Positions 2,661 through 64,000 of a stretch of DNA of 64,000 nucleotides are shown in pieces. This DNA is from Azolla caroliniana (taxonomy: Eukaryota; Plantae; Polypodiophyta). Positions within the stretch are counted from its first letter, which is position 1; each line of letters starts with the position of its first letter. A model generated the notes under the pieces. That model ran no database searches and was not told the DNA's origin. It saw only the letters and a list, made by a program, of their open reading frames with translations. Location of the stretch: assembly GCA_043228905.1 (NCBI GenBank), contig JBHGNT010000005.1:10726001-10790000 (forward strand). Direction: 5' to 3'. The translations under genes and the position numbers were made by a program.

Positions 2661-2894
2661 ATTCTCGTTTAACTTGTGTATAATTTCTTTGTCTTTCATT
2701 TAATATCTTTGCTCCAAATCTTCTTTGTCTTTCATTTAATTTCTTTGTCTTTCAAGCTCCTCTTGCATTCATACATCCTAGTCACACACATAGCTCCACT
2801 TTCAGAAACATGAAATGACTTATTCATATGTTGTAATGCCCTAGGTGAGGGCCTTTTAATAATGGGACTATTGCAACCCTCATTTGCAGCAGTC

Positions 2895-3677
2895 CTAGTC
2901 AAAAACTTGATTATCAAAATCATCAGATTCTTTTGGTATCGAATGATCATGAAGCTCTTGCTTGTTCCTCTCATGATTTGGGCGAACTGTAATAAACTGT
3001 ACAGTTCTTCGTCCATCTTGGCTTCGAATCTTCGCATAGGCAGAACCATTGTCAAGGACTTTGGTCTCCATCTGTACCGCTATGATGTATGGTTGCCCCA
3101 AGATTATCGGATAGGTAGATCCTTCCTGCACAAAGAAATGTTGATCTACCTCTATATCACCAATAGTAACCTTTACATTTGGGCATGCACCAAATAAATG
3201 TTTGGTGACTGATGTGGTTGCTTTTACATGCCAACCATGTTGAGTATCAATTGGCCATCTACCTTTCCTGTAAAAATCAGCACTCATTATATTTATTTCA
3301 AAACCATGGTCAATAAGTGCCATCATTGGGTCTGGAACATTTCCAATCTTCACATGATGCTCAATAGTGGCTCTTGCCCAACATTTGTGAGAGTAGTGGC
3401 TTCTTCTCTCTGTTGAACTTATCATTGAGGTTGATGCATGTTGAGAGTCAACAATGATATTGTTCGACTCGTTGCTTACCACTTCATATGCCACCTTCCG
3501 ATTTGGCTCTTTAACATGCTCATTTACTTGCTTCTTTCTTCGCACAATATCCATTATTTCATCATGAAATTCCTTTTTTGCAATACCTAACACTTCTAGT
3601 GTAAATTCTACTCGACTATCTAGTATTCTTGTTTCTAAAATTTTCTTTAAATCTGTATCCTTTTCAATATCAGACAT
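2895..3677 (-). pseudogene. G1 aspartic protease region
   Basis: ALIDHGFEINIM ... PIILGQPY; homologous to G2 7958-9030; interrupted at 3678 by copia A. Confidence 0.85.
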
Positions 3678-30340: not shown

Positions 30341-32552
30341 ATGGAATCATCATCTCAAACTGATGCTGCAATGAACTCATCTTCAATTGATGTTAGTCGT
30401 GGGTCAACAAGTAGCTCAAGAAAAAGGCTACGCACATCATGGACAGATGCTCACATCATATTTTATATGGATAATGGCACACCTCGACGATGATGCCATC
30501 ATTGCCATGTTTGTTGGTCTTCTACAACATCCACAGGCACTATAGCCAAACATTTAGCAGAAAAGCATCGTTTATCAAGCGACCCAGACCAAAATTCAGG
30601 TATATCACAGCACATTCAATCTTCAATTGAGTCAGCTAGAGTATCTCATGTTTTAGAGAAGAAAATTGATGCTGCCATCGTGAAGTATATTGTGAAGGGA
30701 ACATTGCCCCATGCACATGTGGAATCACCTGAATTTAAGGAGTTCATGCAACAAATTGTACCTGGATATCAAGTAAAGTCAAGACGCACAATTAAGCGTT
30801 CTATCCTAGAAATGTATGTGGTGTTGCGTCGTCAGGTGATAGATTTGCTATCGAAATGCCAATCAAGATTTTCCATAACATTTGATGGTTGGTCAAATAG
30901 TAGTTTGAAGGGCTTTTACTCAGTGACACTTCATTGGGTATGTCATGAAACAGCAAGGTCAAGGTCAATGTTATTGGATTTTGTGCATGTATTTCCAGGT
31001 GTTGGATCAGGGAAGCGTTGTGCACATGCCCTTTTTGCTCGACTTCGATCCTTTGATATTTCTAGTCGACTCTTAGCTACAATTTTTGATGGAGTGAGTG
31101 ATGCACAAGTAGCTGCAAAAGAGTTGAGCATGTTGTTACAAGATGAGCATGGTAAGGAAATTTTGGCTCCATCACATATGTTAAGATGTATGGTTCACAC
31201 TTTTCAGTTGGGTATCAAGGCAGCATTAGAGGTTATCTCACCCTCAACAGAAAAGTTGAGAACAGTGCTCCATACTATTAGATCTAGCAAGGTTCGAAGG
31301 GAAGTGTTTAGGAAGTATGCTAGGATGGTTGAGCATCATGAAAGGGAACCCCCAAGGCTCGATGTTGTTACAAGATGGAATTCTACCTTGGAAATGTTTA
31401 GGCAATCTATCAAGGATAAAGATGTATTGAACTTTACAATTTCAGATTTAACAATATCAAGTGATTTCAATGGTAATGTCTTGACCAGAGAAGATTGGAG
31501 TCACATACATGCCATGGCGGAATGGCTAGATACACCGGCCGAGGTTTCTACTTTTCTGGGAGGCTCAAGATATCCTACATTATCACTAGCATCGCTAGCA
31601 TATAATTGTTTACTAAATCATTGCAATCAATTTTTAGATTCTTCGCTTCCAGGATCATCTAGATTCACACAAGAGGTGCTTCAAAGAGCATCTAAGAACT
31701 GCTTGCAATATTTAATTAAGTATCAAGAATCGTTAAAGTCTATTCCATCTCGCATAGCAATGTTTCTTGATCCCAGGTAATGCTTACCTTTATATCATAC
31801 AATTATCATCATGATTTCTGATTTTTTATTTGAGTTTAAAACCGTTTTATTTGTTTGATAGATTGCCTCTTCCAAATAATCATACAAAAAGAGAGTTAGA
31901 TATTAAGTTGGTTGAAAGCATGATTGAGTCCCACTATCACTCGTTCTCGAGTGATGTTGAACCACCTTCGGCTTCAACCACAATACATGAAAATGATAAG
32001 AATTCTAAAATTTGGACGTTAATGGGTGTAAATAATAAAAGTCTTATTTCCGATTCACAGTCAGAAATTCAACATTTTATGAGACTTCCTTCGGCTAGCA
32101 CGGACAAGGATCCTTTACAATGGTGGAATGATAATAAATCGGCAATGCCTTCACTATATAGGATGGCATGTGATTACCTCAGTATACCAGCATCATCAGT
32201 ACCTGCTAAAGAGGCTAATTCGGCAGCAAAAATGTCCTTTGATAATAGGATAAAACTACATTCATGCACTTTCAAAGCTGAAATGTGCGTTCGATCATGG
32301 ATGAATGTTTTAAAAGAATGTAATGTTCAAATGTTAGATAATTTTCACATCAGTTATGCGGAACTAACAATGAATTTGGATGATCTTGTTGCTGAAGACG
32401 AGGTAATAGATTACATATCGCATGATAGTCAAAGGAAAATTAAGGTATGCATACTACTTGGTTGTTTTTTATTTGAGTCTTTACTTAAAGTATTTTTATT
32501 AATAATTACTTACTTGTTTTTATGTATTTTATATGTACAGGAATCATGTTGA
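30341..32552 (+). pseudogene. hAT transposase (BED finger, DDE core, C-terminal dimerisation domain) with a premature stop at 30491
   Basis: ATG 30341, W...*CHHC...HLAEKH, TFDGWS, RCMVH, DVVTRWNST, FLDPR, predicted introns 31777-31861 and 32445-32540, PLQWW...DYLSIPASSV. Confidence 0.9.
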
Positions 32553-33985: not shown

Positions 33986-35534
33986 AAGAAACTAAAAAAT
34001 AGAGACAATGATGATGAGAAAATAAAAGCCAATGAAAATGATGAGAAGAAACTAGGAGATAGAAATGGCGAGGAAGATAGGAAATGAAGCGATGTTGATG
34101 ATGGTACGGTGACGATGGTAACTCTAGAAGCAAGGGTGATGACGGAGACGAGTGATGCTTCTAGTTGGAAGGTGAACAAACTGTCACGGACACACCAAGC
34201 GTGGACTAAGACGGAGCACGGATGATGAGGCTACGACGGAGCAATGACGGAATGACACAAGAGCATAAAGATAGAGATGAAGATCAAGGAGAGAGGATGG
34301 GTGAAACGAGAATACTAGATTGATATGTCCATGACTAGCGTTGTTCACCTTGAATTCCTTCAAGGTGAACTCAACTATTTATACTAAGTGGCATGCATAC
34401 CTGTTGCATGCATGTGATACAATAGAGCATGTAGGTAGTAGGTACGCATGCATGTGCCAAGTGTTAATAATACAAGGGAGAAATTATGCACATAATGCTA
34501 GCTAAAACCTACAATGAGGAAGTATATACATGATTATATGCTAGATGTGTGGTTAACACATAACACTCGATTATAACATGGTCATGTCAAGAGTTCAATT
34601 CTTGACAATACGTACTATACAAATTATGAGGTATTATACGTATTTAAACGTTAAATGCAGGTACGTAAACAACCATGCTCACAAGGTAATCGCTCTTCTC
34701 TTTCTTGATAGTAGACCACAATCTTCCCGTCTATCGTTCGATGAGGATAAGACTCGAACCTCTGCCTTTTCGTTGCGAGTTGAGCACCGCCGCCGCCAAG
34801 CTAGTTCTTCTCTTGTCTTTTGAAGATTGTATACAGCTTTTACCTTCTCTCCCTCTTACTCTATTATGATCTCTTACAATATAATTTTGCTCAATTCCAT
34901 ACAATAATTCTATTCAATATGATTGTTCGATTCCTTGATGTCCTTGTAACTATACTCCCTTCTCCTTTTATAGGAAGGGGATGGTTTTGCATGTGGGCCA
35001 TATGTCACACATGCAAAGAGGGCTCTTGCATGTGTGCTATATGGTGCGATTGTAGTACATTACATGGTTTAGACTATACAATGCTACTTCAAATAAAACA
35101 ACACATTTTCTTTTATACATATGACAAGTTTGGTTCAATGGTAGGCTTTTAGGTTCATAATGTGGAGGTTGTTGGTTCAAGTTTTCTCTCGCCCATGTAA
35201 TACAATATATGGTGCACATGTAGTACATTATATGGTTTAGGATTTAAACCATACAATATTACTTCAAATAAAATAAGACATATATTGATTTATACAAATT
35301 ACAATTATAGGGTAAATGGTAAGGTTTGAGAGTCATAAGGTGGGTGTTATTGGTTCAAGTCCTCTTTTGTCCATGTAATTTTTTATTTTTTTTTGCCTCT
35401 ACATATAATGTATAATATTATCATAGTGTGTTTTTAATATTACCTTTATAAAACATTATGAAGATATATTTTATTTTAGTTACGTATTTATCTTTTTGTA
35501 GACTTTTAATGTGAAGCTTTTGTACTTCATGACA

Positions 35535-35781: not shown

Positions 35782-38163
35782 TATTAGAGATCTAGGTACT
35801 AAAGTAAGCTTAAGATAAGGATAAACTAATGATAGATAGAAAGGAGAAAGAGAAAGAAGGGTGTCGATCCACCCAACCACCCCCGAGAGAAGGGATCGAG
35901 ACGGACTCAAGCCTCGATCGGCGTCCCATACCACCGTCGTGGCGTCGAGTCGTACCTGGTGCTGGCGCGCTCGCTACAAGAGTTGACCCACCACAAGAGC
36001 AGAGTCTCGATGTAGTCAAAAGATGATGAAATAAGGGTAGCTAGGCCTCTTATTTATAGCGATACCCAAGGCCCCCAGGCAAGTTCACACTTGACCTAAT
36101 GGGTTGTCTCAATCCCGAGGATTAAAAGTAATCCTCCCCTTCTTTACACTCTCGTTTAACTCTCACACTAATCCACGTGTATAGAATACTACGGTAAATT
36201 CTCACCACGGGATATTATATGGTCATGCCCGTGATCTCTATATCGATTTTTTCATGGCGGCTCCCCGAGGCTCAACCATGTATGTTCGCGTCATGAGTAG
36301 TTTATACACGAAAAAAAATGTTAACAATAAACTATGTTTCTTTGCCCACATATGTGGTTTCGGCTCTTTAAGTCCTATTACGAGGACCCCGAGGTGCACT
36401 TAGACCTTAAGTCTAAACATGTGTTATAGTCATATGTATCAAGGATGTTGTATGGTTTTGGTCATATTTGAACTCGAGACCTCGAGAACAAATACATTAA
36501 ACACTTGAGCCAACCAAGTAAGTTGCTCTTCTCGAATGCTTAATGTTCGATGCGTATAAGGGATATGCGAGGCATTTGATCATATATGTTTTTTTTAAAA
36601 GAACATATATGTCAAGGGTCCTGATTTCGCCCTCATTTACCAAAACTATGTTGGTACGTTACCTAACCTCAAGTCTCGTAATTACGATGGCATACGCCAA
36701 AGTGCAACCTAATGGTCAAGCCAAATGAGCCCTCGTTTTGTAGTAGGCCCACGTGGCCCATCACATGCTCACGTCATTACGAATGCCTCTCGTAAGAACG
36801 AGCTCATGGTGGCATCGTATCCATGTAACGAGGGAGGGATGTTGGATACGTGTGTCATTGGAGCGACCTCACTTGAAGTGGGTCAAGCCCTACGTACTCA
36901 ACATCATTATGGCTATAGGCATTTCTTTACGTAACGAAATCGAGGTCATCAACGGGGTTTTCAACAATCAAAAATTGCTGAAAAAGGGATGGTGACAACG
37001 CCATTCTCACAAAAATGTGAGGACGGCCACCAACATCCTTTTCCCGACAAGGACAACTTTCGATATAATCACGTAATAACGAATATACACATATGTTTAC
37101 TTATCACATATATACGATCAAATACGTATATACTTGACCACATATGCCTATATTAAACATATCGTTATATTAAATAGCCACAAATGATGTGATCGAGGTA
37201 CGTAATCGAGGTATATACCTCTACGCACACGAAACATCCACAAATAAGAGATCATCGTAATACGAAATTGAGGTATTGACCTCTTACGCATACGAGACCA
37301 AACGCATATCCTTTACAACAAATCAAGATATTAAACTCATACGCAAACGTAACATATGTTCGTGAACGTAATACGTAATTGAGGTATTAACCTCGTACGC
37401 ATACGACACTCATCACATATTATTTATATGTCAAACGAGGTATTGACCTCGTGCACATATGTAAACGTTTTAGATAATCAATTAAAGACCACTACAACAT
37501 CATTGACTTAATATAAAAAAATGACATATAAACTAAACACATGATTAGATGGGAGAAGAGAGAATAGAAAGAAAAAAAATTACAGAAAGAGTTACCGAAG
37601 TTCTTTGTTGATCGTTGTCTGGATCAAGGCCGACCGCACATCGATCAATCACCATCAATCAAAAGACAAAAGACAAACAAAGAAACATTAGTACATATCT
37701 CTGATACCAAATATTAGAGATCTAGGTACTAAAGTAAGCTTAAGATAAGGATAAACTAATGATAGATAGAAAGGAGAAAGAGAAAGAAGGGTGCCGATCC
37801 ACCCAACCACCCCCGAGTGAAGGGATCGAGACGGACTCAAGCCTCGATCGGCGTCCCATACCACCGCCGTGGCGTCGAGTCGTACCTGGTGCTGGCGCGC
37901 TCGCTACAAGAGTTGACCCACCACAAGAGCAAAGTCTCGATGTAGTCAAAAGATGATGAAATGAGGGTAGTTAGGCCTCTTATTTATAGCGATACCCAAG
38001 GCCCCCATGCAAGTTCACACTTGACCTAATGGGTTGTCTCAATCCCGAGGATTAAAAGTAATCCTCCCCTTTACACTCTCGTTTAACCCTCACACTAATC
38101 CACGTGTATAGAATACTATGGTAAATTCTCACCACGGGATATTATATGGTCATGCCCGTAACA
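35782..38163 (-). mobile_element. Internally deleted chromovirus-related LTR element (LTRs plus leader only)
   Basis: LTRs 35782-36232 and 37712-38163, TSD CCCGG/CCCAG, iMet PBS 37698-37709; LTR motifs (GGTATGGGACG, GGGGTGGTYGGGTGGA) are shared with the 56028 element; gag-pol and PPT absent. Confidence 0.85.
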
Positions 38164-47440: not shown

Positions 47441-47568
47441 AAAAAGAGCACGAATGGGAAAAAGAATTTGAAGCACTGAAAGACGAATTGGTCGTGCAAG
47501 TAGCATTAAAAGAAAAAGAAAAACAATTAAGGAAGAAAAACAAAGGATGGAAGGACTCTGGAGATTAC

Positions 47569-48353
47569 TAGCAATGGGCCCGGTTCAGTTTCGGTTCGGT
47601 TTGGTTTCTTGGCCTTGAAACCAAACCAAACCATTTATTAATAAAAAAAACTAAACCAAACTGCTTTAAAATTTATGAAGCCATTTAAACTGAACCGTTT
47701 AGAGCCGAACCGTTAAACCAAACCGTTTAAAGCATAGGAGAAACCAAACCGTTTACGAAAAATTTAAAACCAAACCAAACCAAACCATTTATTATTGATA
47801 TTAATCATTATACTTATTATATATTTGTGTGAGAAAATCATCATAAATTTATTGATCATACTCATCATAAATTTTGACATCATACTTATTATAAAATTTG
47901 TCATCATACTTATCATAATTTTGGTCATCATACTAATCATAAATTTGATCATCATACTAATCATAAAGTTTATCATCATACTAATCATAAATTTGATTAT
48001 CATACTTATCATAATTGATCATCATAAATTAAAAAGAGACTCTACATATAATACATATAAAATTTAATAAGTTAAAACAAGAGTTTAAAATTAAAAGTTA
48101 AAAGTTATAGCTTATAGAAAATATTTATGAGTATTTTTTAACCTATAAACCTTTAAACCGAACCACATAAACAGAAACCGATAAGCCGCTAAACCGCTAA
48201 ACCGGTCAATTCAAAACCAAACCAAACCAAACCAAAACCGATTAGTAACATTTGAAACCAAACCAAACTGTTTAGTTATCTTTGAACCTATAAACCGTTA
48301 AGCCACAGTTTTTCGGTTCGGTTCGGTTCGAGCCGAAACCGGGCCCATTGCTA
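47569..48353 (-). mobile_element. hAT MITE (785 bp) of the same family as 28661-33331, opposite orientation
   Basis: TIR TAGCAATGGGCCCGGTT, TSD GAGATTAC/GATATTAC, shared subterminal sequence, internal 24-bp AT-rich tandem repeat (47800-48030). Confidence 0.92.
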
Positions 48354-51160
48354 GATATTACAAAGCAACATGGACCAGCTGAAGGAGGAGAAAAACGTTG
48401 GATTGGAGCGTAATCACAAGGAAAGGATTACGAACAGCAATGGCGGCAGTCGCAGACAACAAGAAGGTATGCCTGGCCGTAGCTTGGTGGTTGACAATCT
48501 TAGCACCACCGCCACTGACTATTAAGGACAAGAAAAAGAGGACGACTGAGGTAACTCCCCAACAATCAAAACGGCCCGTCAGGCAACTGGCTGCCAAAAA
48601 AAAACTCTCACAGAGTAAGATCACCCCCAGCTGTCATGAGGGGTGCAATTGCGGAACCGGAAAATACACTTAGAATTAGATTGAAGCAGAAGAACTCAGC
48701 ACAAGCAAAACCGATAGACAATGCCCACCAAGAAACTGCATGGGAAGAAGACGCAGTAGAGGAAGAAGAGAAACCTTTGCAAAGATGCAAGTGAATACAT
48801 CTCGGAAAACGGGCAGGTGACGAGTCGGGTCCACAAGAGGACATTACGTCAGTCTTCATGGAAGCAGTGGGAGCAGGGGCTAGTCGAAAACATGGCACAA
48901 AGGAGTTCCGAAATGGAAGCGTTGGTTTAGCCGAAAAAAGAACCAAAAAAGTTGAGTCAACCAGTTATTCAAGACAACGGCAGGAGGAGAACGAGGGAGC
49001 AAGCCAATTGGATTACTTCACAAAGGGTTGGTCAGCCAAAGAGATAGGGATAATGTGCTAGAACCAACTAGGGGGTCAGGTTCGAAGATGTCGAAAGTTG
49101 TGCATGTGTTCGCAGCAATTACACAATACAGAACCTGCCAACAATTAGTCGAATGGTTGGGGGCGCAAGTCACCATAGCGGTAGCACAAATGGCAGAGGA
49201 GCAACTGGAATGGCTCAGCATACCCACACAAAAGGATAAGTCAGATGAGATGTCCAAGCAATTGGAGGCCAACGGCCGAATTGAAGAACTAGAGGAGTTG
49301 AAGCATGCCAATGAGTTATTGGTTGTACAAGTGGAAATAGGCCAATATAGGACAATTGTGGCGGAACCAAAGAGCCAAGTTTAGGAACAAAGAGAAGTAC
49401 CCATTGCCGGAACTGAACCGGAAAAAGAAAATCTGGTCGCACGGGTAGTTGCGGCGGAGAAGGAAATAAGCAAATTACAAGAAGACATCGCAATGTAAGC
49501 AACGGTGGTTAAGAAAGAGAAACAGTTGTGGGGAATGTCTGAAGAAGAGAAAAAGAAGATGGGGGAAGACTCTGTATGGTTCAAGAAAGTCTGAACCGGA
49601 TGAAGGAAGAGAAGGAGGCGATTTAGCAGGAAAAAGAGAAAATCAAAAGCATAGCCGAAATGGAAATCTAATGGTTGTAGGAGGAACTCCAGCAACAGAA
49701 GGAATGAGATGATCGGTTGCATGCACAGATCCACCGATGATTAAAGGAAAAGCAATCATATTTCAAGAAACTATATCGAGATCACAAGAAGCTGGAGGAG
49801 TTTGACCAACAATGGGAGAAGCTCAAGGAGGCACAGGCAGAAATAAAGGAGAAGAACGAATCATTGATGTCGCAGGAAAAGTTCTTTGAAGAAACAAATG
49901 AGAGAATGAGAGAAGAGGCAACAACGGAGAAGGCGAAGCTGCTTGAAGACCAGGACCGGATGATTGAACGATTTAGAGAAGTGTTGACAAATGTACAGAC
50001 CACGTATCAAACTCAACTAACAACATATGAGGTCCAACCAATAACAACGATGCAATAGATTAAGCGGCTAAAATAGGAAAAATAGGCCATGCAAGAGAAG
50101 ACAAACATGGAGATAAAAAGAATCCAGATAATTGTAGAAAACCGGCGGCAACAGATGAAGGAGAAACTTCAGGAATGTTTGGTTAAGGAATGGTTGGGGC
50201 AAGCGGCAAAACTACAAGGGTTTCGTGCGGATGCGGAGAACTGGAAAAAAACCAGAGATCATTTTTATAAGATGGAGGAAGAAAGCATCATCACAATCCA
50301 GGAGGAGTTATCCGAAGACTTTCAGGTTGTGGCTCAAGTTCAAACTGATGAAATACGGAAAATCTTGGAAGAGTTTGAGGATGATTAGTTGCATTTAACA
50401 TTGGAGTTGGAGGCTTACGAGTTCAGTTGACGAAACAACTGATCCGGGACAACCAAGCCGAATGGATAAATCTTAGTGACGAAGAGAGATCGGAGGAGGA
50501 GCCACTATAGACACACATGGAGCTGGAGCAGGTGAAGAAGCAACCGCATCAATTGGTGGAGCAAAAGACGTGGCAAGGAAGGGCTGAAGATGAGGAACCG
50601 CCACAAACAGCAGAGAATGAATAGCAACATGTTGAAACTCAGCAAGACGGGATGGAGGACGGACAACAAGATATTCTGGGAATATTGGATGAAAGCTAAG
50701 GGCATGTGGGTTCGACGTGCAAGGCACGTTCCCACGAGTGTGCCAAGTGTTACTTGGTGGAGCTAGAATCAGGATAGAGTCAAGAAGAGGAAAGCCGGAA
50801 GGACAAAATAGAGCCGAAGGAAACCCCAGGGAACCGAAATCCAGAAGCAGTGTGAATCGGAGACAGTATGAAGCAGAATCGAGACGAATATTAGAGGATA
50901 TGTAGTAATTAGATATATTAGGAGAAACGAAGCATTGTAATGGAAATAAATTAGAAGAGTTATTATGTTAAGGGGTGATGGATGCGGAAAGATGTGCCAG
51001 AATTTGGACGAATATTAGAGGATATGTAGTAATTAGAATATTAGGAGAAGCGAAGCATTGTAATGGAAATAGATTAGAAGAGTTATTATGTTAAAGGGTG
51101 ATGGATCCGGAAAGATGTGCCGATCCGGATGAACGCCATTTTGTATCTGAACCGACCACC

Positions 51161-55800: not shown

Positions 55801-56744
55801 TGATTTTTTTTCTTAATAAAGCTTACAACTGTGAATCTGGTAGTATGATCTATGAACAAAATGAAATACCTTGCACCTGATAAGGATGGTATCAGGAATG
55901 GTCCACATAGATCTGTATGGACAAGTCGAAGTAGACGCTCTGTCGTTGTACAATTGTCTGTAAATGGTTGGTGTGTCATTTTTCCAAATAGATAGCTTTC
56001 ACACATGAAATATAAATTGAAGATTTTTGTTATGTACACATAACGTTGGTGAGTGTAGGTCACTAATATTTACATTAGTGAAGGGTATGTTCACTATTAT
56101 TAAAAAGGGGACTAATGATTGGATAGAATGAATGATATGTGCATGCACTATCATGATTTAGACAACCAATGAATAGAGAGCCTTTTAGAAAGGCACATCT
56201 ATTCAAGGGGCCTAGGAAAAGGTATAAATATGAGGCTTAGCTACCCTCATAGAGAGCATCACGTCGGAAGGCTGCTGTCGTAGACACCGGTGGTGCGGGC
56301 TAGGCTTTCGTCTCGACGATCGTGTTTATCTCTTCCAAGGTATTAGTCATCCTAATATCCGGCGGTATGGGACGTCGGTGGTAGGTTGGCTATGTCTAGA
56401 TCATAGCTCGGGGGTGGTCGGGTGGAACGGGTTCTTCTATCCAATCTATTTTCTTCCTTTTTACTTGATTTGGTCTATTGATTAGTAATAGACTCTTAAC
56501 AGTGGTATCAGAGCTTTTACTAACAATTTTTTTGTTGTTTTGATGTTTTTTGCGTGTGAGCGAGGGGGATCTAACAAGGCTCGTCATGCTCGTCTCAGGA
56601 TCAAAACAACACTCTAAACCCGGTATTCTTCTTTTTTGATCTCTTCTCTTTTTCTATTATGCGTTCTTTATGGTCGAATCAAATTGGTATTACGTTTTAT
56701 TCTCTTTCTTTCTACCTCCTACTACGCTACGATTTTACTTATTA

Positions 56745-57275
56745 TTATGCATCGGGCCGAGCGTGTTTGCACTAATCGCACACACTCAACTCATGGCCTT
56801 TTGCATATTGCGATATATATCCCACTCTCTCCTCTCTTGAACTCTTACGATAATAATTATTCTTGTGCATTGGGTCGAGCGTGTTTGCTCTAATCGCACA
56901 CGCTTATCTCATGGCCGTTTTGCATATGATGTTGAGTATACCACTCTTCCCCTCTATTGAGCCATCACTTGGCCGATTCTAAGGGATGATGTGGCCTTGA
57001 CGAGGTGTATGTTGCCTACCTATGCCACTCTACTCTCTATTAAGCCATCAATTGGCCGATTCTATGGGATGTTGTGGCCTTGACAAGGTATATGTAGCTT
57101 ACATATGCCACTTTTCTTTTTAATTAGCCATCAATTGGCAGATTCTAAGGGATGATGTGGCCTTGACGAGGTATATGTCACTTACCTATGCCACTTTCCT
57201 CTTTAATTAGCCATTACTTGGCCGATTCTAGGGATATGTGGTGGTCTTGAGGAGGTGCATGTCAACTACCCTAGG
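56745..57275 (+). repeat. Tandem repeats in the chromovirus leader: two of ~118 bp, then four of ~83 bp
   Basis: CGAGCGTGTTTGC..TAATCGCACAC twice; TTGGCCGATTCTAAGGGATGATGTGGCCTTGACGAGGT...ACCTATGCCAC four times. Confidence 0.85.
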
Positions 57276-58273
57276 GTTTCATATCTTAGGGCATGTTTGA
57301 TTCCATACACCTAATTGTTGATTATTCTAATTAAATTTTAATTTCATAAGTATTGTTTCACTTATATGATTTTTTAGTAATTATTATTTACCCGCCCACA
57401 ATTAACTCTCCTTTTTCCACTTCCTTTTCATGTATAAAGTATTTACATCGTTTATTTTAATGTAACCTTTACGTGTAGACTAATTTTTCGTATGGAGTGG
57501 CTTGTTGAACGATTTATTTATTTTTTCAACGGGTCATCTAGGTTTAACTCTTATCATCAAGCCTTAGAAAACGAGTAAAACCATATGAGTTCCCTTATTG
57601 ATGTTTTACTCATGGATTGAGTATTACATCTTTGCGCACAACACCGTCATCACTTGTATCAATTTGTGGCTTATGTCACAATTGTGCAAGTTATAACAAT
57701 CATATTGGGATGTATATGTGCATACCTTGCACTTCCCATTTATTTGTGACATTGTTTTTTTCGTAGGTAACACATGGGTTCTTTTTTTTTTTTACCCTTG
57801 TTTTCGTCACTACTTAACTCTTATGAGTAGTGCCTTATTTTATCATTTTATCATCACGTTTGCTTATTGCTCGCAAGACTAGAATATTACTTGTGAGTGC
57901 ACTTGTTTTTTCACGTAATACACTTTCTCGACCATATAATACATGATGGGTTGGCATTAATATAAGGCTATCTAGGAAATTTCATTGATGTAAGAACCAT
58001 GGTTGAGCCTCGGGGAGCCGCCATGATTACTCAAGATAGAGATCCGAGAAATACATCTTAGCTATGTTTTCCCCCATGGTTTTTAAAACACCATAGTGTT
58101 ACCATAGTTATCGGATCTCGAATCACATCTCATATGTCTAGAGGGGTAAAGACATGAGATACTTTCTTGGATAAAGTTCTTTCAATCAAAATTTCAAGCA
58201 TTCATTTTGCTTGTGTATTTTCTGAACCTCCTTATTTTATTGCATACCCACAGCGTGCATCATCGAACAAGTT

Positions 58274-61200
58274 TTGAACGCAGTTGGAACGATCTCTCCA
58301 AATGAGACCTCTCAACCCCAATCCGCATCTCGCACACAAGCTGAGATCACTATTGAGCAATTGCTCACTACTACCTTGAATCAATTGGCCGAAATGAGAC
58401 AGGCCAATATGGCATTGGAAAAGAAATTCCAAGAATTAACTATTGAGTCCAAGAAAGAAGGTGAACCTTCCTTCGTAGTCACGCCTTTCAAGGGAGATAA
58501 GAAAGAAAGAACCGAGGAGGCCATTAGCACTTGGCTTGGTCGTTGGGAGTCTCACTTTGAGCTTCATCCCAAGCCAGATGCAGTAAAAATTGGTTATGTC
58601 GGTCGTGAGTTAGGTGGCCGAGCTGCTGCTTGGTGGCGTGGCCTAAGGACCGCAAAAAACTTACCCACAACTTGGGAAGGTTTCGTTGATGTTTTTAAGA
58701 AACAATTCTTGCAGCCACCTTCTCAAACCGAACAAGCGCAACACTTGCTCACATTGTCTAGTAAGCCATTTACCTCTCTCGAGGATTATGTGCATCACGC
58801 TCGGACCCAGATCCAAAAATCGGGACTTACGGGTGAGAAATGGTTTGTCGCTTGTTTTTTGAATGGTATTCCCAATGGGGATTATCATTGGATTGTCCAT
58901 GACAAGGACCCCACAACTTTCGAGGAAGCCGTCAACATTGTGCTGCGATACCATAGGACTTCCAAGAAAGACCACAATAAACCTGAGTTCGCCAAAACTC
59001 CGAATGTCAAGTTCATTGGGAAACGTAAGCAATCCAGTGACACTCTTGACCGCGACTCAAAGAAACCGAACCTCTTCTGTGCATATTGCAAGAAGCGGGG
59101 CCACACAAAGGATACCTGTCGTCGTCTTGAGAGGAAGTCAATGAACACCCCTCCTCAAGACAAATCTACGAGTCACACAGGTGAGTCTTTTGATATTGTT
59201 GAAGTTCATACCAATCACTTAAGTTTATGTGAATGCACTTTTCCTTCACATTTACTTGGACCTAATGATTTACTCCGAGCAGTCGGATATATCAATGGAA
59301 CACAAGCACATTTCTTGTTTGATTCCGATAGTTCTCACAATTTTCTTAATGATCACTTTGTGCAGCAAATGGAGCTCCACATAAACGCAAGTGATCATAT
59401 CTATCAAGTTCACATGGCAAATGGAAACGTTCAATACATCAGTGGCATTGTTTGTCAACTGCCAATTCAAATAGATACTTATTTGGAGAAGCTTGACTTT
59501 CATGTTATGAAATTACAATCCGCAGATGTCATTTTAGGATATCCTTGGTTTTTTAATAAAAACCCTTCTTTGTCCATTGATTGGGTTAATCACTCAATCA
59601 CATTTGAACTTAATAATTGTAAACATTTTATTCAATGTTCCAAACTTCCTTCTCATTCACTTGTGTCTTCTAAATCTTTAAGTGAGTATTCTAGTTCATT
59701 AATTTATTCGTGTGTAATTGATCCGGCGGTTCAATTTTATTATTTTAATATTGACGCCACACAAATACCACATTTTGAGCAACGATTACTCGACTCTATT
59801 TTAGAGGATTTTCAAGATGTGTTTCCTACTAAATTACCGCTTACTTTACCACCTAAACGTAATGTGGACCATCAAATTGAACTCATCCCTGGGGCTGCTC
59901 CTGTGAGCATTCCACCTTACCGACTTAGTCGATTAGAAGAGGATGAGATCGCTAAACAACTTAAGGAATACTTGAGTATGGGCCACATTAGGTATAGTAA
60001 ATCACCTTGGGGTGCGCCAGTTCTATTAGTCAAGAAGAAGGAAGGTTCGTGGCGAATGTGTATCAATTATCGCCGTTTGAATAAAATGACAATTAAGAAT
60101 GCATATCCATTACCTCGTGCCGATGATTTGATTGATCGTTTGCACGGGGCTCGATATTTTACGAAAATTGACTTACGAACTGGTTATCATCAGATTCGCA
60201 TCGCTGAGGATGATATTCCTAAAACCGCTTTTCGTACGCGCTATGGCCATTATGAGTTTTTAGTCATGCCATTTGGGTTGACTAATGCTCCAGCCACATT
60301 CCAACAAGCGATGAATGATGTTTTCCGAGATCAACTCGGTGATTTTGTTGTCGTCTTCTTGGATGATATTTTGATATATAGCCGTACCTTGCAAGATCAT
60401 GTTCAACATGTTCGATTTGTTTTGCGAAAGTTGCGTGACAACTCTTTCTATGCAAAACATTCAAAATGTGACTTCTTCCAAAAATCTATTGTGTACCTAG
60501 GTCATTTAATTACAGAAAATGGCGTTGAAATTGAACCTTCTCGTATTGAAAAGGTTAAACTTTGGCCCATTCCTCGTAATATTCGTGAACTTAGATCATT
60601 CTTAGGGTTTGTTGGATTTTTACGAAAATCAATTCGTAACTATTCCAAATTGACTACGCCATTAACTGACCTTTTAAAAGGTCATCCACGTAAGTCTGTC
60701 AAACCAATTTCATGGAATGAACAACTTGACAAATCATTTGAGACACTCAAGGAGCATGTGTGTCAGGCTCCCACTCTTCTATTACCAGACCCTTCTAAGC
60801 CTTTCTCAATTGAAACCGATGCTAGTGATTATGCTATTGGTGTCGTTCTTTATCAAGGTGGTCACCCTATCGCTTTTGAAAGTAAGAAGCTTGATGTTGC
60901 TCAATCTCGGTATTCGGTTCAAGAGAAAGAGTTGTTTGCGGTGATACACGCACTTAAAACATGGAGGCACTATCTCTATGGAAATAAATTTGTGGTTACA
61001 ACAGACCATCAGTCATTAAAGTATTTTTCTGACCAGCCCGATCTTGTTGGTCGTAAAGGCCGTTGGGCTGACCTTATGCAAGATTTTGATTTTTCCACAC
61101 GATATCGCAAGGGTTCTATGAACACCGTTGCTGATGCTCTTAGTCGCATTAAAGAAGTTAACATGCTTAGCTTCACGGAAATAAAATCTGATCTTTTAGA

Positions 61201-62665
61201 TCACCTTCGAGGGAAATACCTTGATGACAGTTATTTCTCAAAATACTGGACGAAAGCCGAATCTGGTTTAGATGCCGATACTAGCACCCTACCCTCGAAG
61301 GCGACCTTTCCCATTACAAACGGTTTGCTCTACCGTAGTGGAAAGGTCTGTGTTCCAGATTTACCAAATGTTAAACAGAAAATTTTTCATGAATGTCATG
61401 ATGCACCATCTGCTGGTCATCCTGGAATACAACGCACACTCGTTCTCATCTCGTGTACTTTTTTCTGGCCTAAGATGCGCTCTGACGTGCATAAATACGT
61501 AACTCAATGCTTACAATGTCAGATTAATAAGTCGGAACGACTTAAAGCTGCTGGTCTTTTACATCCCTTAGATATTCCCAACAATAAATGGGAAAGTATC
61601 TCGATGGATTTTATTGTTAGTTTACCTCGTACACAGAGGGGTCATGATGCCATATGGGTTGTCGTTGACAGGCTAACAAAATTAGCTAGATTTATTCCTA
61701 CAAAAACCACGGTAACCGCTCAACAGTTGGCTTATCAATTTGTTGATGAGTTATTTCGTTTTTATGGATTACCGATGGATATTGTTAGTGATCGAGATTC
61801 CAAGTTTACTAGTGACTTTTGGACTCAGGTCTTTAAGAAACTAGAAACTACGTTGAGCATGAGTTCCGCAGATCATCCTCAGTCTGATGGACAAACTGAA
61901 CGAGTTAATCAAATTATTGAGGACATGCTTCGAGCTTATGTAGCAAAAACCCCTTCTAAGTGGGAGCAATACCTTCCTATCTTAGAATTTGCCTATAATA
62001 GCTCTAAACATACATCCACTGGATATAGTCCTTTTATGTTGATGTATGGTTTTCAGTCACGTGCCCCAGTTGATGTCACGATTCATTGTGATACATTAGA
62101 CAGTACACGCAATTTTTTGCAAGACATGAACCAAATGTTGCATATTGCCAAAGAAAATGTCAAGACAGCTCAAGATCGTGCTCGATTTTATGCTGATCAG
62201 GATAGACGTCCTCGTGCATTTACTATTGGTCAAAAAGTTTTTTTGCGTGTCCCGACTGATTCTACGTCATTATCTACGGGCAAGTGCGCTAAGTTAGCCC
62301 CACGATATTGTGGCCCATTTGAAATCCTTAAGCGAGTTGGGTCATCTGCTTATCACCTTGCCTTACCTCGTAACGTTGGTATTCATCCTGTTTTTCACGT
62401 CAGTCGTCTAAAACCATTTTTAGGCTCTGGTGATAACACCATCACAATCCAAGATCTTGTAACATTAGAGGATTTTTCTTACAAACCTCATGTTCCTGAA
62501 CGAATTCTTGATTCTCGTACTAAACGTTTACGTTCTAAAGAGATTCGGCTATTCAAGATCAAATGGATGGATAAACCTATTGATGATGCCACATGGGAAC
62601 GCGAGCATTCGCTTAAGGCACAATTTCCTCACTTTATATTGCAAGAGTGCAATCTTTTGAAGTAG
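58274..62665 (+). CDS. Gypsy gag-pol polyprotein with C-terminal chromodomain; true start probably on an upstream exon (56586-56622)
   Basis: [23 protein letters not shown] (protease), FTKIDL...[29 protein letters not shown]...SDRD...QTER, CGPF, PERILD...[14 protein letters not shown]. Confidence 0.93.
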
Positions 62666-64000
62666 GGGAGTATGTTATGTACACATAACGTTGGTGAGTG
62701 TAGGTCACTAATATTTACATTAGTGAAGGGTATGTTCACTATTATTAAAAAGGGGACTAATGATTGGATAGAATGAATGATATGTGCATGCACTATCATG
62801 ATTTAGACAACCAATGAATAGAGAGCCTTTTAGAAAGGCACATCTATTCAAGGGGCCTAGGAAAAGGTATAAATATGAGGCTTAGCTACCCTCATAGAGA
62901 GCATCACGTCGGAAGGCTGCTGTCGTAGACACCGGTGGTGCGGGCTAGGCTTTCGTCTCGACGATCGTGTTTATCTCTTCCAAGGTATTAGTCATCCTAA
63001 TATCCGGCGGTATGGGACGTCGGTGGTAGGTTGGCTATGTCTAGATCATAGCTCGGGGGTGGTCGGGTGGAACGGGTTCTTCTATCCAATCTATTTTCTT
63101 CCTTTTTACTTGATTTGGTCTATTGATTAGTAATAGACTCTTAACAATTTTGGATGGCAACCCTTGAACTCTTTTTTGTTGTTGACATTGTTGTAGTGCT
63201 TGATAGTAAACCCTTGAACTCTTTTTTGTTGTTGACATTGTTGTAGTGCTTGATAGTGCTTGAAGTAGACACTCTGTCGTTGTACAGTTGTTTGTAAATG
63301 GTTGGTGTGTCATTTTTCCAAATAGATAGCTTTCACACATGAAATCTGAATTGAAGATTTTGGATGGCAACCCTTGAACTCTTTTTTGTTGTTGACATTG
63401 TTGTAGTGCTTGATAGTGTACATGCCCAAGCCGGCAATGCCATAATTGAGTTAGTGAAGATCTTTTCTTGTGATTTTGCAGGACTGCTGAGAATGCATTT
63501 GGAGGATGACTCTGTATTTGATATAAGTGCTTCTCCTTGGGACACACCAACTGTGTACTTGTGTTTCCATTTTTGAAAAATAGAATTGCTTTCTCTTTAC
63601 AGAATTGTATTATTAGTCCGTCTACAGTTGCTTGTCCAACTGATAACAGGTGCTTAGCTAGTCCTGGTACATAATAGACATTTGGGACTGTAATCTCGTG
63701 ATTATCTAACAATCTGAGTTGATTGCTTCCTTTGCCGATTGTTGTTTTCCGTTTGTTGTCTCCAAAAGTAACTGACAGTGGGTTGGACAAAATCTAATAG
63801 AAATTTAACCAGTCCTTCTGATATGTGAGGTGATGTGTAGCTCCAATCTCTAGGTACCATGTATCATGTTCAGTTTTTGTCTCTTCTGCAATGACATGAT
63901 ATGCTCACAAAATATTGTCATCTTCTGTAATTTCATCCGAATCTCCTCCAAATTCCGTGTATTCTTCTGACTTCGAGTTTGATTTTTCTTCTAATGTTGC

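Follow-up and report, generated by a model that had tools for sequence, protein, structure and literature searches.

A 64,000-nt stretch of the Azolla caroliniana genome (contig JBHGNT010000005.1, positions 10,726,001 to 10,790,000; hereafter the window) contains a non-coding LTR retrotransposon without a tRNA-type primer binding site (PBS), raising the questions of how such an element starts reverse transcription and whose proteins it uses. The first-pass annotation, whose coordinates all proved correct, had proposed a gene-less parasite of a self-priming chromovirus, primed by its own 5' end. The results described here make it very probable that a gene-less multicopy family of about 1.9 kb primes reverse transcription as Tf1 does, with an 11-mer of its own LTR, and draws on a related coding chromovirus for its proteins.

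The element occupies 34607-28061 on the minus strand, between CGTAT target site duplications (TSDs) at 34612-34608 (upstream) and 28060-28056 (downstream). Its 426-bp LTRs (TG...CA; 34607-34182 and 28486-28061) are identical at 420 of 426 positions; together with the perfect TSD and an intact polypurine tract (PPT, GGAGGGGGG plus an ATAA spacer, 28499-28487), they agree with what had been annotated. In the 5' LTR, the TATA box TATAAAT (34383-34377) lies 32 nt ahead of the predicted self-primer AAGGTGAACAA (34351-34341), which is preceded by C and would form nt 1-11 of the RNA; the 3' LTR has its own TATA box, U3 arm and primer copy (28230-28220). There is no TGG, and GT separates the 5' LTR from the PBS TTGTTCACCTT (34179-34169), again as first read. 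A non-coding leader and a degenerate array of 46-54-nt tandem repeats, variable in number among copies, follow at 34168-33332. The chromodomain remnant noted beside the PPT (28625-28489) is real: it is broken by an internal deletion, a frameshift and a stop, yet matches coding elements (tblastx E 8e-11) and is homologous to the 3' end of the helper pol described below.

The window copy measures 6.55 kb because a later 4671-bp hAT DNA transposon, not part of the family, sits inside it (33331-28661; terminal inverted repeats beginning TAGCAATGGGC, 8-bp TSD GCGAGGAC); without this insert the element is about 1.87 kb. The insert carries transposase fragments on the plus strand (30494-32552) and a PPR gene fragment on the minus strand (30155-29805), and hAT dimerisation and PPR domains were detected in it. 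The captured PPR fragment adjoins broken transposase frames, and termini related to those of the insert occur near 47560-48354. Two other LTR elements of the window have ordinary primer binding sites. A second, non-coding-looking element of 2.4 kb (35782-38159, minus strand; 451-bp LTRs, 97% identical) has the PBS TGGTATCAGAG, and an intact chromovirus at 56028-63146 (one ORF of 1479 aa; 474-bp LTRs, 100% identical) has a TGG PBS. Nested elements spanning about 34 kb are bracketed by an 860-bp repeat pair (125-981 and 34678-35534, 94% identical). Both copies contain internal repeats of about 170 bp, and neither strand showed a recognisable PBS.

The PBS is the exact complement of the 11-nt LTR tract, offset by two nucleotides from the 5' LTR. 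In five of 20000 shuffled LTRs, 11 nt were complementary to a tract that began 0-5 nt past the LTR end. The element thus combines the absence of a tRNA PBS with at least 10 nt of self-complement beginning 0-5 nt after the 5' LTR, the span by which plant self-primers have been defined (at least 10 bp, starting 0-5 bp past the 5' LTR; PMC6317226). No tRNA matched the PBS among 39 distinct tRNA sequences of 12 types, a partial sample of the genome, the best having three mismatches in 11; nor did Rfam and ARAGORN find a tRNA, 5S RNA or ribozyme in the 1.9-kb element.

Conservation of the pairing was read at 28 family junctions, a set biased towards sequences similar to the query. Complementarity was kept in 25 of the 28 and the primer was exact in all, and in other families the two sequences change in step. 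Five primer types in the genome co-vary with the PBS. The pair AAGGTGAACAA/TTGTTCACCTT is found in the 1.9-kb family and in the coding families A and C; AAGGAGATCAA/TTGATCTCCTT in family D (seen at the 5' junctions of 4 among 20 loci, and in L119 and L120); AAGGGATTCAA/TTGAATCCCTT in subfamily G, with the exact primer upstream in 14 of the 20 loci read; and AATTGGTTCAA/TTGAACCAATT in family E, the PBS of each pair beginning two bases past the LTR. The F type, read in one copy, contains two G-U pairs. Further primer types that co-vary with the PBS occur in metagenomic relatives. At one locus (L135), a recombinant LTR joins a B/C-like arm to a G-type primer, and the PBS matches the G type.

The distance from TATA box to primer is nearly constant. 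It was 31-34 nt for each of the nine LTR types measured in the genome. Sufficient upstream DNA was available for 47 metagenomic relatives; 13 of these yielded a self-primer candidate, 12 with the primer at this spacing. Nine metagenomic loci of a Tcn1-like clade (L197, L206, L207, L214, L218, L240, L244, L248 and L260) have 10-12-nt self-primers 32-34 nt after the TATA box and are armless. In eight related metagenomic elements with clear LTRs (L202, L213, L222, L229, L230, L250, L257 and L258), a TGG PBS was absent, as was any exact self-complement of at least 9 nt. In three polyA RNA-seq runs, 66, 39 and 39 reads fell on the LTR, mostly at most 90-95% alike and continuing into other sequence, and 22, 15 and 13 on the helper; read starts in these sparse runs formed no pile-up. 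That the primer is the 5' end of the RNA is supported indirectly, by the constant TATA spacing and by where the inverted segments described below end.

When the RNA was folded from 34351, the C at nt 12 was predicted to bulge out after the 11 bp, and pairing to continue for a further 19 bp with the end of U5 (z -3.5). The first-pass annotation had the complementarity stopping on both sides; this holds for the first helix only, since pairing is predicted to resume beyond the bulge, between the R segment at 34339-34320 and the U5 end plus GT spacer at 34198-34180. The predicted second duplex (-26.7 kcal/mol) was equalled by none of 300 shuffles. It was weaker in coding families, where 9 of 300 shuffles did as well as the second duplex of A, 11 as that of D, 250 as that of C and 271 as that of E. 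The arrangement of 11 bp, nt-12 bulge and short helix recurred in predictions for A, C, G, L187, L189 and L190, the bulge being predicted in the 1.9-kb element and in six of eight other elements folded. A third duplex on the leader side, as in the Tf1 'pretzel', was unsupported for the first 25 nt of the leader (189 of 300 shuffles as good), and the folds of A, D, G, L187 and L190 likewise gave weak ones.

Searches of the 523-Mb genome were used to count copies. A 25-mer spanning the LTR end, PBS and leader occurred exactly 70 times, indicating at least 70 copies with the exact PBS junction. Both LTRs were visible at 16 of the 30 best loci, with lengths of 1355-1941 bp and LTR identities of 95-99.8%; the 5-bp TSDs of these 16 copies were perfect in nine, had one mismatch in three and did not match in four. 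In four intact copies that were checked, the longest ATG-initiated ORF was 81-116 aa, and no coding region for Gag, protease, reverse transcriptase, RNase H, integrase and chromodomain was present. Since such non-coding copies are dispersed and have their own, differing TSDs, the family moved in its reduced form, as had been suggested, and intact copies of 1.36-1.94 kb bear this out. It has amplified with intact cis signals and is a non-autonomous LTR retrotransposon in the broad sense. One locus (L002) holds two family copies in opposite orientation with exchanged TSDs (139-562, 1531-1956 and 2821-3246), an exchange that reads as the mark of inversion by LTR-LTR recombination.

A coding partner was located by a chromodomain search followed by comparison with the remnant and the LTR. 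The resulting family A is 5.3 kb long and has a Gag of 341 aa overlapping a Pol of 1199 aa with protease, reverse transcriptase (RT), RNase H, integrase and chromodomain. It shares the PBS, PPT and LTR end of the 1.9-kb element, has 144 exact PBS junctions in the genome, and its LTRs are 100% identical in L061, L062 and L076. The proposal of a parasite of a self-priming chromovirus is thereby supported, and family A is the likely supplier of proteins, judging by these shared sequences. The primer also occurs in families B, C and H, a point against singling out A as the helper. In a quick tree, the helper RT sits among self-priming relatives and far from the tRNA-Met chromovirus of the window, whose identity to the helper Pol is 37%.

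The parasite lineage itself looks modular. Over the first 280 bp (U3 and the beginning of R), its 5' LTR shares 82% identity with the coding helper family, whose R-U5 is unlike that of the 1.9-kb element. R-U5 is instead 70-80% identical to that of the non-coding sister subfamily G (142 places), which shares R-U5, leader and repeats with the 1.9-kb family and differs from it in U3 and primer. Two observations suggest a possible Pol III signal in these LTRs: a hairpin at the LTR start of the 1.9-kb element (34607-34585) resembles, by eye, a T-arm/B-box on the opposite strand, and family C LTRs (L103, 2700-2771 and 7726-7797) carry a full-length tRNA-like sequence, antisense, at the outer end of U3, scoring 26.7 and 25.2 bits against the Rfam tRNA model (cut-off 29).

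Two features go beyond the account first given for this element, the first being a hairpin at the U3/R border. The U3 arm GTTCACCTTGAA (34370-34359) pairs with 34354-34343 across a GGAA loop, and the resulting 12-bp stem takes in nine of the 11 bases of the primer (-18.6 kcal/mol, equalled by none of 500 shuffles). Arms identical to that of the window copy were present at 26 of 28 family junctions. The hairpin also beat shuffled sequence (0-1 of 500 as good) in the 1.9-kb family and in A, B, C, D and H, with differing loops and inner pairs; in these strong-armed families, 7-11 primer bases are paired by the arm, and the arm of D tracks the D primer sequence. Among shuffles, 24, 33 and 95 of 500 equalled the weak arms of E, F and G, respectively; the arm of L135 is mismatched, and that of only one of 13 metagenomic self-primer candidates was significant, indicating that self-priming does not need the arm. 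The strong-armed families and two metagenomic relatives formed one RT clade in a quick tree (SH-aLRT 98), in which nine more distant self-primers made up a separate, armless clade. Arm covariation consists of few independent changes, all within one clade, and selection is likely to be acting on the arm. Its position ahead of the predicted start means that the hairpin would form only where U3 precedes the primer.

The second feature is a class of inverted copies. The genome has 435 places where U5-GT-PBS runs into the normal CC leader and 38 where GA comes next. Of these GA junctions, 37 run on as the reverse complement of U3, through the arm and TATA box, and many extend to the first base of the LTR; about 31 inverted copies are distinct, with six apparent duplicates on small contigs. 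Read in the sense of the element, they consist of U3, primer, AC, inverted U5/R, a jump to the interior and a normal 3' LTR, and perfect 5-bp TSDs flank L142, L167 (1.9-kb family), L169 and L179. The order primer-AC-inverted U5/R matches the sequence that self-primed minus-strand strong-stop DNA would have. At the remaining junction (L133, the same as L144) the PBS is 4 nt longer, its extra bases matching those immediately before the primer; a primer of slightly greater length would leave this trace. Since an 11-bp crossover gives the same junction sequence, the inversions do not prove RNA cleavage. Single-stranded PBS tails of the Tf1 type explain how such joints can form, either in the particle or at a resident copy.

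The distribution of these products among families bears both ways on a role for the arm in limiting them. Inverted against normal junctions numbered 4 against 214 in A and the 1.9-kb family and 13 against about 127 in the weak-armed G (Fisher p 0.002), a comparison confounded by age. Families B, C and H, with good arms, contributed 14 inversions, and most inverted copies of A, H and the 1.9-kb family retain intact strong arms. Within G, the arms of inverted copies were not clearly weaker than those of normal copies (p 0.28 with RNA and 0.08 with DNA parameters; the six small-contig duplicates and L144 left aside). That the arm masks spare primer copies is, on this mixed evidence, possible at somewhat under even chances. 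A reading of nearly even standing accepts self-priming and gives the U3 hairpin another job, as an RT pause for first strand transfer, a 3'-end or polyadenylation signal or a promoter structure, with inversions unrelated to it. It would account for inversions that arise despite intact strong arms, for distant self-primers that lack the arm, and for the position of the hairpin exactly at the minus-strand landing site after transfer; it fits less well with a D arm that follows the D primer, with the pairing of 7-11 primer bases in strong-armed families, and with the rarity of inversions in the two strongest-armed young families.

The inversions could also have arisen after integration rather than within the particle, through Rad52-type annealing between the single-stranded PBS tail of free cDNA and a resident element's primer copy, again with self-priming intact. 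Such annealing has been demonstrated for Tf1 (PMC11042837), it would keep the TSD of the resident copy, and some inversions seem to combine U3 and U5 from different families. However, of the 23 partial inversions placed (4 of 32 junction loci were unplaceable), nine end at R nt 14-27, thirteen further in, one at nt 3 and none inside U3. These ends are as expected if the 5' end of the template lay near nt 12, and they fit strong-stop DNA better than randomly truncated full cDNA, so that a post-integration origin is rather unlikely.

It is improbable that the RNA starts upstream of the arm, making the arm/primer hairpin and the primer/PBS duplex alternative folds of one 5' end that acts as a switch. 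The hairpin is indeed predicted to outcompete PBS pairing once the upstream bases are included, and the 4-nt PBS extension at L133 matches bases just upstream of the primer. Yet the arm begins 13 nt past the first T of the TATA box, which is too near for a usual Pol II start, armless relatives have the same TATA spacing, and only one short extension of that kind was found in 38 junctions. Priming by a host tRNA or half-tRNA, with an incidental LTR match, is very improbable even though the tRNA set compared was partial, given the missing TGG, the three mismatches of the closest tRNA, and five different PBS sequences that each match their own LTR (chance 5/20000).

The favoured mechanism, self-priming from the element's own 5' end, would proceed as follows. 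Transcription would start at about 34351, 32 nt past the TATA box; RNA nt 1-11 are predicted to pair with the PBS, with nt 12 bulged and the R/U5 helix following; and the helper RT/RNase H, by analogy with Tf1, would cut after nt 11 and extend the freed primer. Copies integrate with 5-bp TSDs, as the flanks described above demonstrate. Plus-strand synthesis would recopy the primer into the PBS, so that the PBS would follow any change in the primer and a non-coding lineage could adopt U3-primer modules from different helpers. In the last step, the weakest, the U3 arm may mask the primer copies in the 3' RNA and the plus-strand DNA, so that pairing with the PBS would be left to the free 5' end alone, and inverted copies would be the likely products when PBS-ended DNA nevertheless pairs with an arm-bearing primer copy. 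Taken as a whole, a wider reading can be put forward only tentatively: that one clade of plant self-primers evolved a U3 'anti-primer' locking all primer copies except the RNA 5' end, that about 7% of surviving PBS junctions are inverted, primer-linked strong-stop DNA, a fossil record of self-priming, and that gene-less parasites exploit cis-only priming, swapping U3-primer modules while the PBS rewrites itself. The arm points to a difficulty peculiar to self-primers, whose primer sequence recurs in each LTR and in plus-strand DNA, and suggests how it might be solved.

The mechanism is less novel than the first-pass annotation implied. Self-priming has been predicted for 83% of 1500 Tcn1 plant chromoviruses, in mosses and clubmosses (PMC6317226, Neumann et al. 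2019). Like these, the 1.9-kb element has no tRNA PBS, a self-primer by the definition used there and a 5-bp TSD, and its helper has a gag overlapping PROT-RT-RH-INT plus a chromodomain (PMC6317226). The elements of that set are coding and 5.5-9.4 kb long, whereas those described here are a 1.9-kb non-coding derivative and a helper of 5.3 kb; the U3 arm, a covariation test and inverted products do not appear in the sections of PMC6317226 consulted. A literature search over titles and abstract openings, with primary Tf1 papers, figures and bioRxiv supplements outside its scope, returned no non-autonomous self-primer, U3/R anti-primer hairpin or inversions of this kind. Tf1-style self-priming, also as predicted in plants, is thus already known, and the non-autonomous form, the U3 arm and the inverted copies are seemingly new within that search.

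Further likenesses are found among non-seed-plant chromoviruses and non-autonomous plant elements. SM-Tcn1 of Selaginella and RLG1 of Physcomitrium patens are, by description, chromoviruses of non-seed plants as well (PMC2864245, PMC7466625). The two ORFs of SM-Tcn1 (323 and 1238 aa) are close to the 341 and 1199 aa of the helper, although its authors found neither tRNA priming nor self-priming (PMC2864245). The 1.9-kb family resembles non-autonomous plant LTR retrotransposons in being non-coding, in its coding remnant, in its intact PBS, PPT and LTR ends and in modular LTR exchange between families (PMC13570524, PMC6934838). In contrast, the sugar-beet families have tRNA-derived PBS motifs, and the string 'self-prim' is absent from the main text describing them (PMC13570524). 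TRIMs measure less than 1000 bp, have a tRNA PBS and end in repeats of 100-250 bp (PMC6934838); lengths of 1355-1941 bp, 426-bp LTRs and the lack of a tRNA PBS rule out membership. Pipelines that demand a tRNA PBS would tend to overlook such families.

The closest parallel is with Tf1 of Schizosaccharomyces pombe, in which self-priming was shown by experiment (PMC7175516) and about half of the cDNAs retain the PBS as a single-stranded tail, which anneals to homologous DNA (PMC11042837). The 1.9-kb element shares with Tf1/Tf2 and the Tf1/sushi group an 11-nt primer at the predicted 5' end, a PBS directly past the LTR and an adjoining second duplex (PMC7175516, PMC4600332). Tf1 needs a three-duplex 'pretzel' (bioRxiv 2022.12.06.519325), whereas two duplexes are supported here; and Tf1 is autonomous with experimentally shown priming, whereas the 1.9-kb element is non-coding and its priming predicted. 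From its sequence, it likely works like a Tf1/sushi self-primer, minus the third duplex, with a Tcn1-like helper. In the literature consulted, experimental proof of self-priming comes from fission yeast only, and plant Tcn1 elements are self-primers by sequence prediction. Covariation and dozens of likely natural by-products of reverse transcription now back self-priming in the Azolla genome, and since this genome offers a young coding family as well as a small parasite whose predicted duplex is strong, the mechanism known from Tf1 becomes testable in a plant.
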